This document shows positions 21,724-47,999 of a DNA stretch of 64,000 bases, in pieces (the first letter of the stretch is position 1; every line of letters begins with the position of its first letter). A program made the translations under genes and the position numbers. Under the pieces are notes generated by a model. It was given only the letters and a program-made list of their open reading frames with translations, was not told the origin of the DNA and made no database searches. Origin of the DNA: Candidatus Multivoradales bacterium (lineage in GTDB: Bacteria > Acidobacteriota > Thermoanaerobaculia > Multivoradales > JAHEKO01); assembly GCA_965223855.1 (NCBI GenBank), contig CBDCXM010000009.1, forward strand, positions 480,001-544,000, read 5' to 3'.

Positions 21724-21938
21724 CGACGACTCCTTCTGTGAACCGGCTCGGTACGTCTCCCGGACCGGCCTTTTCCACGTAACTGTGCACTATAGCACCG
21801 CTTTTTCGGTCCACGGGTGTGACGCAGACCGCAAGCAGCCGCTTTCACCGACGCTCCGGCAGACGTAAACTGCAGCTCGATCCGCGCCGCTCTCCATTCA
21901 CCTGGCACCTCGTCGCAGAACCCGTCACAGCGCGCACC

Positions 21939-43675: not shown

Positions 43676-43905
43676 GCGAGGGCAACGAGATTCCAGTCTC
43701 GAAACGCGGCCTTGGCTAGCCCCCTTCCCTTGCGGACCCGCCCAGGGTTCCAGCCCAGAAGTCGGCCCAGCGCATCAGGTAGGACTCGTAGTCGAGAGCC
43801 TTGTCGCAGCTCTACTTCGGCACTGTGGGGTGACGAGACCCGGAGCCCCCGGCCGCCCCTCGGGCTCAGGGACGTGCACCCCTTGCTATGCTTCTCCCCG
43901 AACCG

Positions 43906-45129
43906 ATGAGACCGATCCGCTACGCCGCATGTCTGCTGGGGTTCGTGATCGCGCCTGCGGCCGCCGACCAGGTCCCGGTTGGCGAGCCCTTCCTGATCGC
44001 CCAGTTCGAACAGGGACAGCTGCGACTGCTGGACGCCGCCTCGGAGGGAGACGGAACGTTCGTCGTGGTCTGGTCCACGACGGCAACCGCCGACAACGAC
44101 AGCGTCGTCCAGGGACGTCGCCTTACCGACCGCGGTGCCGCGCTCACCGACGTGTTTGCCATCAGTGAAGACACGACCGGCAGTCGTTGGACGCTGGAAG
44201 TGGCGACCGACGCCGCGGGCAACTTCGTCGTCGCCTGGGCCAGCAGCCAGACCGGCGAGCACGCGGTCTTCGCGCGCCGGTTCGAGGCCGATGCAACTCC
44301 TCTCGGCGGCGAGTTCCAGGTCAACACGGCAACGATCGCCAACCTGGCTGGACCGACCGTGAGCAGCAACGCTGCCGGAGACGTCGTCGTCGCCTGGGGA
44401 GGCTTCTCGGACGGCGTCCTCGCGACGGTGTTCGATTCCGCAGGCTCCACCACCGTTCCTGAGTTTCTGGTCAACGACCCGACCACGCCTCCCGGAGCCT
44501 CCTTTCTCGACGTCTCCGCTGGAATCGCCTCCGATCGCTCCTTCACAGTGGGTTGGGGCAGCCAGTTCCTCGGCGAGTCCGGCACGGACTCACAGCTGTT
44601 TCAACGCCGCTTCTCCGACACCGGCGTCCCCCTCGGCCCTGCGGTTCAGATCTCGGATGCGGGAGACGACGGCAACTTCGCATCCGCTCTGGACTCCGAC
44701 ATCGACCGCCACGACGAGTTTCTCGTCGTCTGGCACGAGCAACTCAACCTCGCCTTCGGCGCGGTCATGGGCCGCAAGACCGACACCTCCGGCACGCTCG
44801 GCCCGGCGAAGGTTCTTCATCCCGTCAGCGAAGGCCACTCTTTCTCGATGGCCGATACCGGCGAGTTCGTCGTCGTCTCGCAGAGCTACTACGCCAACCC
44901 GCCCTACAGCGGCGCCGTCTTCGACCGCGAAGGCGACCCGATCCGTACCTTCACCCTTCCGGCGGAACGCCTCGGAACCATCGTCGTCACCCGCACTCGC
45001 CCCTCGACGTACGTCCGATTGACCACCGACGACGAAGACAATCTGATCGGACAACTGTTCGTCGATCGCTTCTTCGCGGACGGATTCGAGAGCGGGGATA
45101 CGGGACAGTGGCCGGTGGTGGTGCCGTAG
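43906..45129 (+). CDS. Secreted beta-rich repeat protein with C-terminal FADGFESGD motif
   Basis: Signal peptide; repeated G-x-FVVVW...RRF...G-x-EF-x-VN; start 43906 or 43888. Confidence 0.8.
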   Translation: MRPIRYAACLLGFVIAPAAADQVPVGEPFLIAQFEQGQLRLLDAASEGDGTFVVVWSTTATADNDSVVQGRRLTDRGAALTDVFAISEDTTGSRWTLEVATDAAGNFVVAWASSQTGEHAVFARRFEADATPLGGEFQVNTATIANLAGPTVSSNAAGDVVVAWGGFSDGVLATVFDSAGSTTVPEFLVNDPTTPPGASFLDVSAGIASDRSFTVGWGSQFLGESGTDSQLFQRRFSDTGVPLGPAVQISDAGDDGNFASALDSDIDRHDEFLVVWHEQLNLAFGAVMGRKTDTSGTLGPAKVLHPVSEGHSFSMADTGEFVVVSQSYYANPPYSGAVFDREGDPIRTFTLPAERLGTIVVTRTRPSTYVRLTTDDEDNLIGQLFVDRFFADGFESGDTGQWPVVVP

Positions 45130-45166
45130 GGGACCGGTGGACCCCCCGAGGAAGAGGTTCCCCGAG

Positions 45167-45605
45167 GAAGAGGTTCCGGGTGATTGGTCAGGAGCCGGCA
45201 CTCGACGATCCGAACCCGGCTTGGATCGCCTCTTGTCGCCGTGCGCCACTCTTCGATCGCGCGGTTCACTCGCCTCTCGACCGGTGAAGCGCTGACGCGA
45301 AGGGCCTTGAAGACCCCCGAGAAGAGGTTCCGGGTGATTGGTCAGGAGCCGGCACTCGACGATCCGAACCCGGCTTGGATCGCCTCTTGTCGCCGCGCGC
45401 CACTCTGCGATCGGGCGGTTCACTCGCCTCTCGACCGGTGAAGCGCTGACGCGAAGGGCCCCCGAGAAGAGGTTCCGGGTGATTGGTCAGGAGCCGGCTC
45501 TCGACAATCCGAACCCGGCTTGGATCGCTTCTTGTCGCCGCGCACCACTCTTCGATCGCGCGGTTCACTCGCCTCTCGACCGGTGAAGCGCTGACGCGAA
45601 GGGCC
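45167..45605. repeat. Three copies of a 140-bp structured repeat (45167-45306, 45321-45460, 45466-45605)
   Basis: Aligned by eye: 3-6 substitutions per pair; periods 154 and 145. Confidence 0.95.
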
Positions 45606-45702
45606 TTCAAGACCGTCTCGCTCGTTCTCGGGAGTCCGGGCGCATAGAGGCATCTACGACCCCGGTGGGCGTTGAGAACAGCACACGCTGAGGGCTCTTC
45701 GT

Positions 45703-46617
45703 CTACCCGGCGCGCGCTTTCACCGGCAGGTAGCACGGTGGGCGGAAGCAGCCTTCGGGAAAGCAGACCTCTCGGCCTCTGCGAAGCTTCTCCGAAGCCG
45801 CCCGATACTCGACCAAGAACCATCGGTACGCTTCTTCCATCGCCCGACGGACCTTGCCGTCACAGGCATGGAATCTCGGCGCGGGCGTGCGCTCGAAGTG
45901 CTCAGGCCGGTCGTGAGGATCCTGCGCCAGGATCGCCTTGCGACCCAGCACCGGTCTGCCGGTCTTCTCGTGCGCCTTCTCGATGGCCCTGACCATCTCG
46001 CGGACTCGTTTGCGGTACTCGGCTTTGTCGAGGTGCTCCCAGCAAGGGATCGGAGTCAGCTCTAGACGATGCTTGGAGGCGAAGCGTGCCGGAGGATTCG
46101 CCTCTCCGCGGCGGGACGCTCGATACTGCTCCGAACGGTCGATCCACTCGCCTTCCATCGTCTCTCCCGAGAGAAGCGCATGCGTACTCGTCGCTCCAGG
46201 CCAGTGGCGCGGTGAAGCAACGAGTCGCTCCTTGACGCCCTGCTCGAGGAGATAGCGGAGTCGCCGAACGTGATCCTCAGGCGTTTCGCTGACGACGACA
46301 TCCGTGTAGCGACGGCCCCAGAAACGCTCCCTCCAGTCGTGCAGCCTTCCGATCTCGCGCGCGACATTGGAATTGACGTAGGCCATGAAGCTGGCCATCT
46401 GCTGAACGTCGGTAGGCCTCAGGAGCAGGTGAGCGTGGTTCGACAGGTAGACGAAGCCGCAGACCCGCATCCCGGTTCTCTCCTGAGCGCGCGCGAGAAT
46501 CCCGACGACGCGGTCGCGCACCTTGGCTGAGGGTCGCAACAGATAGCGGCCCTGTTGGGTCCGGACCGTGATCTCGACCAGCGACTCTTCCGGCAGGTAG
46601 CGAAGCTTCCTAGACAT
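45703..46617 (-). CDS. HUH Y1 transposase (REP-associated tyrosine transposase-like) with C-terminal extension
   Basis: LSNHAHLLL HUH motif, FWGRRY, catalytic Tyr in RLRYLLEQGVKERLV, WP motif. Confidence 0.88.
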   Translation of the reverse strand: MSRKLRYLPEESLVEITVRTQQGRYLLRPSAKVRDRVVGILARAQERTGMRVCGFVYLSNHAHLLLRPTDVQQMASFMAYVNSNVAREIGRLHDWRERFWGRRYTDVVVSETPEDHVRRLRYLLEQGVKERLVASPRHWPGATSTHALLSGETMEGEWIDRSEQYRASRRGEANPPARFASKHRLELTPIPCWEHLDKAEYRKRVREMVRAIEKAHEKTGRPVLGRKAILAQDPHDRPEHFERTPAPRFHACDGKVRRAMEEAYRWFLVEYRAASEKLRRGREVCFPEGCFRPPCYLPVKARAG

Positions 46618-46668
46618 TCCATGGAGAAGGACGCGACCGAGGCGGAGAATCTTGCACTATTCACCCGG

Positions 46669-46712
46669 CACCTCCTCTCGGGGCACCTCCTCTCGGGCAC
46701 CTCCTCTCGGGG
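46669..46712. repeat. Three tandem copies of CACCTCCTCTCGGG(G) (15/14/15 nt)
   Basis: Read directly; reverse complement resembles the left-end 15/16-mers. Confidence 0.95.
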
Positions 46713-47999
46713 CTGCTCGTCCGTGTCACACGGACCGTTGTTCTGGGAGGGCCGGCTGCCGATCATGCCTCAGGGCAGAGCCTGGCCCAGACACTGGTAG
46801 CACCGCCACCAGTAACTCCTGATGAGCCCTTGGCCCTAGCCGAGATCGGTGCAGTCCCTGAAGGCAGGATGGGCGACTCTGCACTCGCCTCTTTGCCGCT
46901 TGGAGTGAAGGAGCCTGACCTCGTCGTCGAGATCTTGGGCTCTCACATCATGGTCAAGGCGCGCAATCAGCAGGCTACGAGTGTCGAATGGTCACCCAAC
47001 GACGAGCTCAGAGAGTACCTTGAGGACAAGTACAAGCAGCTCGCCACACTGGCCAGAGGATCCGAGCGACTCGGACCACTGGAGGCCTCGGTCACAAACA
47101 CAGCAAGAGGCGTCGGCGTCTTCCTGTACCGCCACTTCGCTCCGCCGACATTCAAACAGGCACTCGAGCGGCTGCTCGTCGAGGCACCAGAAGGCGAGCG
47201 GCTGTCGCTTCAGATCTACTCAGACAACCCCCTCCTGCCGTGGGAACTCCTTGTTCCCGAGTTCGAAGCTTCTCCAAGGCGCTACTCGCATCTGTCTCTG
47301 GAGACCGGCATAAGCCGCTGGCACGCGAGGCAGGACGGCCAAGTCATGAGGAGCCCACCTCATAGACTTCAACTCGACGAGATCGTCGTCGTCGCTCCCG
47401 AATACTCCAGCCAGTTGCCTGCTGTGAGGTCGGAAGTCGAGATTCTCCGCGAGTTCGCAACCAACAGCACCCTTCAAGTAGCGACCGAGGTCGCGACCGC
47501 AGCGGCAGCCCTGACTCGGCTGCCCAAAGGCCTCCTCCACTTTGCTGGCCACGGCAGGGTGGTTCGAGGAGATCTCTCGACACCGGCCTATCAGCTGCTC
47601 CTCGATGACGACCAGCAGCTCTCGGTTGACCAATGGCGTGGCTCAACTAGTTCCTCGCTGTCAAGTCCGGCCCTAGTCTTCTTCAACGCCTGCGATGTGG
47701 GGCGTTCAGGGACCTCAGCCAGCGTTGTCGATGGGTGGGCACCAGCGCTCCTAGACGCCGGGGCCAGCGGCTATCTCGGCGCGCTCTGGCCAGTTACCGA
47801 CTCTGCGGCCGGCGCCTTCGCGAGACGCTTCTATGAGACCTTGGCCGAGCAGCTTGAAGGTGGCTCCGCGGCCAATGTGCTAGATGCTGTGGCGGCTGCC
47901 AGAGAGCTCTTCCTTGAAACTGGAGACCCAAGCTACGCCGCCTACGTTTTCTACGGCGACAGCGAACTATCTCTCTCCATCGACGACGGATCAGGCTGA
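46713..47999 (+). pseudogene. CHAT domain protein, probably 5'-truncated
   Basis: LPWELL, HFAGHG, FFNACDVG, YVFYG; frame open and protein-like from 46713 but first possible start is TTG 46830. Confidence 0.7.

Follow-up and report, generated by a model that had tools for sequence, protein, structure and literature searches.

The window analysed here is a stretch of 64,000 nt from Candidatus Multivoradales bacterium (assembly GCA_965223855.1, contig CBDCXM010000009.1, forward-strand positions 480,001 to 544,000). At positions 45144-46712 it holds a gene for a RAYT-like single-tyrosine HUH nuclease, which lies between two short inverted end motifs in place of the hairpins of repetitive extragenic palindromes (REPs). 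The locus is a mobile-element-like unit of the TIRtron type, about 1.1-1.2 kb long, or 1.57 kb when the arrays of partial end copies on its two sides are included. In gene orientation, the gene-proximal end is termed LE and the gene-distal end RE. Positions without a prefix refer to the window, those prefixed C2, C4, C8 or C9 to contigs of the source genome, and L numbers to loci.

Layout of the locus and its enzyme

Downstream of the gene, to its left in the window, Tandem Repeats Finder (TRF) and a repeat search detected 16-nt units at 45144 and 45160, and long units start at 45160, 45314 and 45459, with spacings of 154 and then 145 nt. Pairs of the long units (two of 145 nt and one of 154 nt) share 139-141 identical bases in gapped alignments. 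Upstream of the gene, to its right, three copies at 46667-46713 are spaced 15 and 14 nt apart. The inner repeat TCACCCGG and the outer segment of the full RE occupy 45459-45482. Inward from the innermost termini, CCCCGAGAAGAGGTTCCGGGTGA (from 45460, + strand) and CCCCGAGAGGAGGTGCCGGGTGA (46661-46683, - strand) form an inverted repeat with 21 of 23 positions identical, a count read by eye from the printed strings, in which the left copy has five C. A 24-nt end pattern gave three matches in the window against 0.00 expected (100 shuffles); it misses the right end because that end is one base shorter, and a search with an 18-nt core recovered it at C9:526661(-). All six junction contexts in the window can be read as ...CC followed by a restart, in a register that is ambiguous by 1-3 nt because each unit also starts with C. 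An earlier reading of this DNA from its letters (hereafter the sequence-only reading) had described a 23-bp inverted repeat around the transposase and nested copies restarting at the terminus, of 16, 154 and 145 nt on the left and 15 and 14 nt on the right. Both are present, and the nested copying recurs throughout the family.

The predicted enzyme matches the Pfam family Y1_Tnp (PF01797) over residues 31-119 (E = 3.3e-7; 30.9 bits, cutoff 23). It carries the HUH motif N60-H61-A-H63 and a catalytic tyrosine, Y122, in the context R-L-R-Y122-L-L-E-Q126-G, with Q126 at Y+4. H61, H63 and Y122 are invariant and Q126 nearly so among 34 aligned homologues, in which W95, W139-P140-G141 and a C-terminal P247-R248-F249 block are also invariant. 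The top Protein Data Bank (PDB) match of its AlphaFold2 model (mean predicted local distance difference test 84.6) in Foldseek was the REP-bound Escherichia coli RAYT (4er8_A; E = 3.2e-6, target TM score 0.74, root-mean-square deviation 2.6 over 151 columns), followed by the ISDra2 and IS608 TnpA proteins; 4er8, 2xm3 and 2vjv were all matched at probability 1.00. In this model, the N-terminal half has the RAYT/TnpA fold. The HUH motif, the one catalytic Tyr and the TnpA-like fold place the predicted protein among the HUH/Y1 single-tyrosine nucleases. Its best NCBIfam family is REP_Tyr_transpos (NF047646; 47.8 bits, under the cutoff of 80 bits), while transpos_IS200 (NF033573) scores 17.9 bits, under a cutoff of 55 bits. 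The description of the enzyme as RAYT-like in the sequence-only reading agrees with this sub-cutoff family match and with the structural match to 4er8. The C-terminal half (approximately residues 145-304) has no Pfam or NCBIfam family, and the PDB fold search was dominated by the N-terminal domain; an atlas search with residues 145-304 returned unnamed clusters only, with scores of at most 0.90.

Table 1. Features of the element, in window coordinates
Feature	Position	Strand	Content and basis
Outermost partial RE copy, 16 nt	45144..45159	-	Outer segment alone, identical to the start of the next unit; Tandem Repeats Finder and repeat search
154-nt partial RE copy	45160..45313	-	Outer terminus, inner repeat and about 130 nt of 3' non-coding interior
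145-nt partial RE copy	45314..45458	-	Start as in the 154-nt copy, shorter inward reach
Innermost (full) RE and 3' non-coding region up to the stop codon	45459..45702	-	Repeat alignment
Gene for the 304-aa Y1/HUH enzyme	45703..46617	-	Pfam, alignment, predicted structure
LE	46618..46683	-	5' leader with conserved TGCAAG block, inner repeat CCGGGTGAATAG, innermost outer segment CCCCGAGAGGAGGTG (46661-46683)
14-nt partial copy of LE outer segment	46684..46697	-	Seen again in independent contigs
15-nt outermost partial copy of LE outer segment	46698..46712	-	Seen again in independent contigs

The repeated 3' non-coding region has no Rfam match at E ≤ 1, and its single-stranded DNA fold has a z score of -1.0; a structured RNA or DNA in this region was rejected on these grounds. 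The left neighbour of the element is a 413-aa open reading frame (43888-45129, + strand) that matches nothing in Pfam; 15 nt separate its stop codon from the array. The right neighbour encodes a CHAT-domain protein (46830-47999, + strand; PF12770, E = 1.3e-21).

Stuttered ends across the family

A tblastn search of the 4.52-Mb source genome returned 27 matches to the enzyme, about 20 of which are read as full-length paralogs (54-94% identity). Of 41 related genomes, counting the unpublished genome G005, 34 contain homologues, and 804 database proteins of about 300 aa match at E ≤ 1e-10; these are called RayT where their source names them. Among GTDB species genomes, the record titles are mostly those of Thermoanaerobaculia or Acidobacteriota metagenome-assembled genomes (MAGs), with a few labelled Gemmatimonadota, Deltaproteobacteria or Rickettsiales. 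The four closest paralogs each carry, downstream of the stop codon, a tandem unit of 143-211 nt that ends at the terminus and is followed by re-duplications of 13-16 nt, and their terminal sequences differ. More distant paralogs are stuttered at one or both ends. Some elements of the source genome are clustered, for example at C9:1.063-1.079 Mb and C9:3.053-3.057 Mb.

Tandem repeats are strongly concentrated next to these genes. In the source genome, zones of 250 nt upstream and 700 nt downstream make up 0.48% of the sequence, and 18 of the 249 tandem arrays (TRF score ≥60, period ≥10) lie within them, against 1.2 expected; with the TRF score raised to ≥100, the zones hold 8 of 49 arrays, where 0.24 would be expected. 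The two largest arrays of the genome, at C9:2807348-2811305 (TRF scores 2313 and 1678), are unrelated to transposase loci. In a set of 138 loci with 126 distinct genes, exact direct repeats of ≥11 nt spaced ≤40 nt apart were counted zone by zone. They are present at 49 of 109 loci in the 300 nt upstream (LE zone; 4.8 per kb) and at 54 of 101 in the 500 nt downstream (RE zone; 2.9 per kb), compared with 4 of 115 gene bodies (0.06 per kb), 14 of 87 upstream distal flanks (0.60 per kb) and 8 of 77 downstream distal flanks (0.17 per kb). Relative to the gene body, the density of short direct repeats is 50-80 times higher in the end zones. At least three copies of a common start occur at 50 of 207 ends. 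Unit lengths differ by more than 3 nt at 40 of these 50, and such arrays are therefore nested partial copies rather than uniform tandem repeats; at the remaining 10 the units are near-equal.

The same architecture at more than 100 loci from many independent assemblies makes it hardly credible that the copies are repeats collapsed or expanded by an assembler, or another artefact of assembly or sequencing. For the window locus itself, short-read contigs from four runs of one study, possibly of the source sample, repeat three features without differences: the left 16-nt stutter (covered at 44900-45196 and 44900-45241), the right stutter (46644-47000 and 46580-46764) and the junction of long units 1 and 2 (45279-45350). 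An artefact would find some support in the behaviour of these contigs, which break inside the element and none of which, among those listed, spans all three long units or the 45458/45459 junction. Two contig 'joints', whose 26-nt sides have 90% likeness, are probably due to paralogs. Many homologues are found on contigs of about 1-2 kb, which suggests that stuttered ends may break short-read assemblies.

From outside to inside, each end consists of a fast-evolving outer segment of 10-17 nt, which shows little conservation except for a C-rich start, and a conserved inner motif, approximately (A/G)GGT(G/T)^CC(A/G)(C/G)(C/G)(C/T)GA(A/T)T, that is common to both ends. At LE, about 50-100 nt separate the inner motif from the ATG, and the conserved TGCAAG block follows the motif; at RE the motif lies about 200-300 nt past the stop codon. 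The commonest periods of short units are 15, 13, 14, 11 and 17 nt, and the innermost short units are mostly 10-17 nt long. The inner limit of the short units is GGT(G/T)^CC(A/G), where the conserved inner repeat has its edge: 72 of 126 perfect short tandem pairs have the core of the inner motif at this boundary, compared with 14% of windows drawn at random from the same loci. Microhomology at the junctions of these 126 pairs is absent in 29, C in 26, CC in 18, GC in 7 and GCC in 4, and longer or different in the rest. The sequence-only reading had placed every junction at a CC. A bias towards C is borne out, and the CC target that it proposed is better described as a hot breakpoint at the GGT(G/T)^CC(A/G) edge of the inner repeat together with the outer terminus 10-17 nt away.

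At LE, the window locus, C9:3053968 and C9:93795 are homologous across the outer segment and no further than its outer edge. On this comparison of sequences, the outer boundary can be taken as the true terminus at the gene-proximal end. Outer segments that differ between copies 98% identical elsewhere had prompted the idea that they are captured target DNA; it was rejected, as homology at three independent paralogous loci runs through them. In alignment, loci L008 and L029 also share the six bases adjoining the inner motif, which counts against captured targets. Target-site duplication was likewise rejected: direct matches between upstream and downstream flanks proved to be neighbouring elements or whole-element tandems, with no short duplication among them. 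An empty-site search with a 4.6-kb query across the locus against four genomes of the same genus gave paralogous transposase matches and short unrelated ones, with no orthologous flanks from which the insertion boundaries could be read.

Local inverted alignments scoring ≥30 were obtained at 30 of 94 loci, compared with 1 of 94 in a reversed control and 11 of 94 in direct orientation. Generic local alignment is noisy for short inverted repeats, with GC-rich chance matches, and 42 loci were defined by a motif-anchored search, each with an inner-motif match of ≥14 of 18 positions at LE and at RE. In this set, whose filter leaves the window locus outside, LE and RE outer segments (16 nt outside the GGTG edge, shifts of ≤2 nt allowed) score 6.76 within loci and 6.32 between loci (permutation p about 0.03). 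The family-wide inverted repeat is, at the level of sequence, the 15-20-nt inner motif. LE and RE outer segments are usually not inverted copies of each other, being barely more alike within loci than between them, and the 23-bp repeat of the window is therefore exceptional and not typical of the family. Copying of one end from the other was considered and rejected, since 6.76 and 6.32 barely differ and a few loci, L106 and L005 among them, drive even that difference. By eye, the window locus is another case in which the two outer segments are alike. L106 (CAYRNR010000181.1), from a MAG labelled Rickettsiales, has four units of 11-13 nt at each end, of the types CCGTCAAGGTT and CCATCAAGGTT, and the outer segments of its two ends are near-perfect inverted copies, like those of the window locus.

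Folding of the ends as single-stranded DNA, compared with shuffles, gave z scores of +0.35 and +0.29 for LE and, weakly, -1.2 and -2.2 for RE. No convincing hairpin was found at the ends by this comparison, in keeping with the earlier description of the ends as non-palindromic inverted repeats.

Relation to described Y1 systems

RAYT-like genes with terminal inverted repeats (TIRs) have been named TIRYT/TIRtron (Di Nocera, De Gregorio & Rocco, 2013; BMC Genomics 14:522, PMC3733652). The text of that article describes a motif GGGGWSAS common to 'some' TIRs, TIR families that occur as singles, dimers and clusters, and an Acidobacteria-specific group. The predicted gene and its surroundings fit this definition, being a RAYT-like Y1/HUH gene flanked by TIRs and not REPs, and they resemble the TIRtrons of that text in having gene-less ends, single or clustered. 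As strings, the inner motif GGTG(C/T)CA(C/G) and the published GGGGWSAS, which derives from some TIRs, differ at 1-2 of 8 positions. The sequence-only reading had offered the locus as an undescribed system; that claim goes too far, since TIR-flanked RAYT-like genes already carry a name in the text cited. Two differences stand out. There are about 20 copies per genome here and 1-3 in the TIRtrons as described there, and nested partial copies of unequal length restarting at the terminus are not reported in the article's text, although its Figure 9 may differ.

The enzyme is less easily placed in the published classification of the family. In the account given by Quentin et al. (2018; PMC6006769), 20 of 26 TIRYTs belong to subclass 2.1, which has the signatures NH[VYF]H and Y[IV]xLNP, a C-terminal helix-turn-helix/Bac_DnaA_C-like domain and a median length of 238 aa. 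The present enzyme departs from these descriptions with NH(A/C)H, YLLEQ (Q at +4), 304 aa and a C-terminal half of no known family, without a Pfam domain. The Y---NP tyrosine motif, given in the same account as common to all members of class 2 (RAYT/TnpAREP), is absent, and Q at +4 is nearly invariant in its place among the 34 homologues. Class 3 (Acidobacteria and Planctomycetes) is described there by NHVH, Y----Q (Q at +5), about 178 aa and atypical hairpins with a CnGA foot; compared with this description, and not with a profile, the present enzyme differs in Q at +4, in its 304 aa and in that no hairpins were found. Set apart in this way by sequence signatures and not by profiles, the clade of about 300 aa appears to fit no row of Table 1 of that article. 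Drawn mostly from Thermoanaerobaculia MAGs, it is probably a new subclass of the TIRtron/RAYT kind.

REPtrons offer the closest likeness in structure and in NCBIfam match, and they too have a gene between inverted cognate motifs. REPs are here understood as imperfect palindromes of 20-40 nt with a 5' GTAG-type tag, dispersed at high copy number. In contrast to REPtrons, the present loci have no REP hairpin, no GTAG-type tag and no Y---NP motif, and the enzyme falls below the NF047646 cutoff. The gene is multi-copy, unlike RAYT genes, which typically have one or very few copies per genome, and the motif is not present in hundreds of dispersed copies: a regular expression for the inner motif has 104 matches in the 4.5-Mb genome, many by chance, and 22 of these have a copy of the gene at a distance of at most 1.2 kb.

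Tandem amplification of end units that varies between strains is also a feature of the REP-containing bacterial interspersed mosaic elements (BIMEs) of E. coli. According to Ton-Hoang et al. (2012; PMC3333891), E. coli TnpAREP cleaves between C and T of CT dinucleotides on either side of the REP, and its strand transfer assembles tandem units in vitro. In the model proposed for BIMEs in Figure 7B of that article, cleavage is followed by extension of the 3'-OH and by a second cut in the newly made strand, and a unit is gained when the tyrosyl-5' phosphate is attacked. End-array build-up as such, presented as new in the sequence-only reading, is accordingly anticipated by RAYT cleavage and strand transfer as shown in vitro and modelled in that article. 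The units differ in kind, being direct partial copies of one end here and alternating REP/iREP pairs in BIMEs.

Insertion sequences of the IS200/IS605 type share with the present elements the HUH/Y1 fold of their TnpA (IS608, ISDra2), Q at Y+4 as in class 1 (Y---Q), multiple copies, and cleavage sites at a fixed short distance from the bound motif. They are unlike them in a TnpA of about 150 aa, in subterminal hairpins without inverted terminal repeats, and in near-identical copies; here the transpos_IS200 score is below cutoff, the ends are TIRs, and the closest pair of paralogs is 94% identical in protein. In rolling-circle HUH elements (IS91, ISCR and Helitrons), re-initiation or read-through at an end can give tandem or multiple ends. 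Those elements differ in their Y2 or Rep-helicase architecture, have no such inverted ends, and insert at defined tetranucleotides.

What is already known is the TIRtron/RAYT kind. What is apparently unreported is the nested end signature, which is informative on mechanism: no description of nested end arrays was found in the literature searched, although figures or supplements of the cited papers may show similar ones.

Origin of the end arrays

We favour, at a probability of roughly 55%, the reading that the partial end copies are by-products of the enzyme's own chemistry. The array scar would then probably mark where the enzyme cuts and rejoins DNA, as judged from the sequences of its units. 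In the scheme that we propose, the enzyme would sit on the inner motif, nick one strand at the outer terminus and remain covalently joined to the element strand through its 5' phosphate. On the flank, a polymerase would extend the 3'-OH set free by the nick and so copy the end again. The preferred place of a second nick, in the new strand, would be GGT(G/T)^CC at the edge of the inner motif; some nicks would lie 30-210 nt deeper, usually before C. The new 3'-OH would attack the tyrosyl-linked terminus and leave one added copy, which reaches from the terminus to the position of that second nick. An identical product would come from unequal exchange between two sister copies, both of them cleaved. 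Over several rounds, nested copies of unequal length with a common start would build up. The data show the anatomy of the ends, its recurrence, the two favoured boundaries and the fold of the enzyme; we infer where cleavage falls, on which strand and through which covalent intermediate, as well as any role that the arrays may have, telomere-like or otherwise. With its first cut at the outer terminus, such cutting, extension, recutting and rejoining would account for copies that have a common terminus and differ in reach, as seen.

Passive replication error would require no nuclease chemistry. Forks stalled at a structure, or at the enzyme or another protein tightly bound to the motif, could duplicate the adjoining outer stretch by slipping or switching template at microhomology of 1-3 nt, which is indeed common at the junctions (mostly C, CC or GCC); the unit boundary lies at the edge of a conserved, presumably protein-bound motif, and many arrays are simple tandems of equal length, as the near-equal ends attest. 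We consider this explanation unlikely, though it deserves to be taken seriously. At the window locus, C9:3053057 and C9:1993130, long units (143-211 nt) and short ones (13-16 nt) restart at exactly the same base, and the restart base coincides with the limit of paralog homology. Nor do the ends have a strong single-strand structure (z +0.35 to -2.2), and 29 of the 126 junctions have no microhomology.

The arrays also vary between copies. Region 7600-9000 of contig C4 (10 kb) matches C9:92400-93900 with identities of 95.9% and 99.9% to either side of the distal array, while the structure of this distal (RE) array differs from that of the 92-kb locus on C9. As the arrays differ between near-identical flanks, they turn over quickly. 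The transposase of contig C4 is split by a frameshift, and the contig looks like a strain or haplotype variant of the 92-kb locus.

Some ends stand without a gene. Gene-less direct end arrays were located at C9:1978286-1978686, C9:2635225-2635315, C9:2864755-2864849, C9:3069078-3069410, C9:3123638-3124189, C2:169674-170358 and C8:403495-403537; each has its own outer segment, they are often nested, and several are among the strongest tandem repeats of the genome. The window also holds a solitary inner end motif, GAGGTGCCAGGTGAATGG, at 21888-21908 (- strand), which is intergenic with no transposase gene nearby and is of the type that flanks paralogs C9:2637100 and C8:213674. Whole elements can be repeated head to tail. 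At L075 (CBDFNS010000020.1), the 300 nt upstream of the gene recur identically past the distal end with a period of 1473 nt, and in the source genome a diverged pair at C9:1069704/1071006 (C9:1069704-1071908) has a period of about 1300 nt. Directly outside the RE of the C9:1993130 element, at C9:1992584-1992680, lies an end of another subfamily (inner motif GTGCCACTCGAAT) with the same outer segment as C9:1993130 (CCTCTAGGAGGGG type) and a stutter of its own.

Such arrangements could be expected if whole elements, or short non-autonomous derivatives of them, inserted beside or within resident ends, drawn there by a likeness of target and end motif, and recombination between copies then deleted most of each insert. 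The two whole-element tandems, the clusters of elements, the abutting end with its outer segment in common at C9:1992.6 kb and the gene-less arrays at ≥7 sites are compatible with this origin, which we nevertheless regard as quite improbable. It needs two events per unit and predicts leftover opposite ends, whereas every unit listed copies one end only, in direct orientation. The inner motif, which a unit moving by itself would require, is missing from the units of 10-17 nt, and no target-site duplication or flanking direct repeat was found.

Several observations weigh against an enzymatic origin of the arrays. Close paralogs are mosaic. L008 and L029 (genome G032) are 98% identical from LE only until 20 nt before the stop codon, and the likeness of the window locus and C9:3053057, within the 94-98% identity range of the mosaic pairs, ends 9 nt past the stop codon; in these pairs the 3' non-coding region and the distal end are much more diverged. 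The sequences hint at gene conversion or exchange of 3' modules, and recombination between copies therefore also shapes the ends. The base before the cut is not conserved and no clear cleavage motif emerges beyond 'before C'. Junction microhomology of 0-3 nt fits slippage or template switching as well as site-specific nicking, and the 29 of 126 junctions that have none count here too. About half of the loci have no stutter by the ≥11-nt/≤40-nt criterion. Inverted end motifs would present opposite strands to a strictly single-strand enzyme, and movement of the whole unit would stay unexplained. No near-identical copies were found at different sites in the source genome (the best pair has 94% protein identity), and copy likeness gives no support for recent activity there. 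Literature searches found no biochemical study of TIRYTs or of this clade.

An enzymatic origin could go further than a variant of RAYT chemistry, a reading that we think rather improbable. The arrays would be the footprint of a distinct Y1 mechanism, in which the C-terminal domain anchors the enzyme on a non-hairpin, possibly duplex motif, nicks fall at a ruler distance of 10-17 nt outside the motif and at its edge, and the end is recopied in a rolling-circle-like manner over anything from 10 nt to the whole 1.4-kb element. The clade would then be a separate branch of HUH transposition, new in mechanism, and not a RAYT variant. Under such a mechanism, the outer segment would be rewritten by the process and might help to choose the joining site.

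Two catalogues, of 2013 and 2018, list TIR-associated RAYT-like enzymes, which raise the question of how an enzyme built for single-stranded hairpin substrates handles inverted, non-palindromic ends. If the arrays were only slippage at a protein-bound site, they would be a curiosity of genome texture. In their sequences, the arrays seem to record two sites at which an as yet unstudied class of enzymes cuts DNA. They are a free natural experiment, in which more than 100 independent loci point to two breakpoints, the outer terminus and GGT(G/T)^CC, and also to a re-initiation style of joining, turning a vague family annotation into concrete, inexpensive predictions for work in vitro. In MAGs of Thermoanaerobaculia and their relatives, a considerable part of the strongest tandem repeats consists of stuttered ends.

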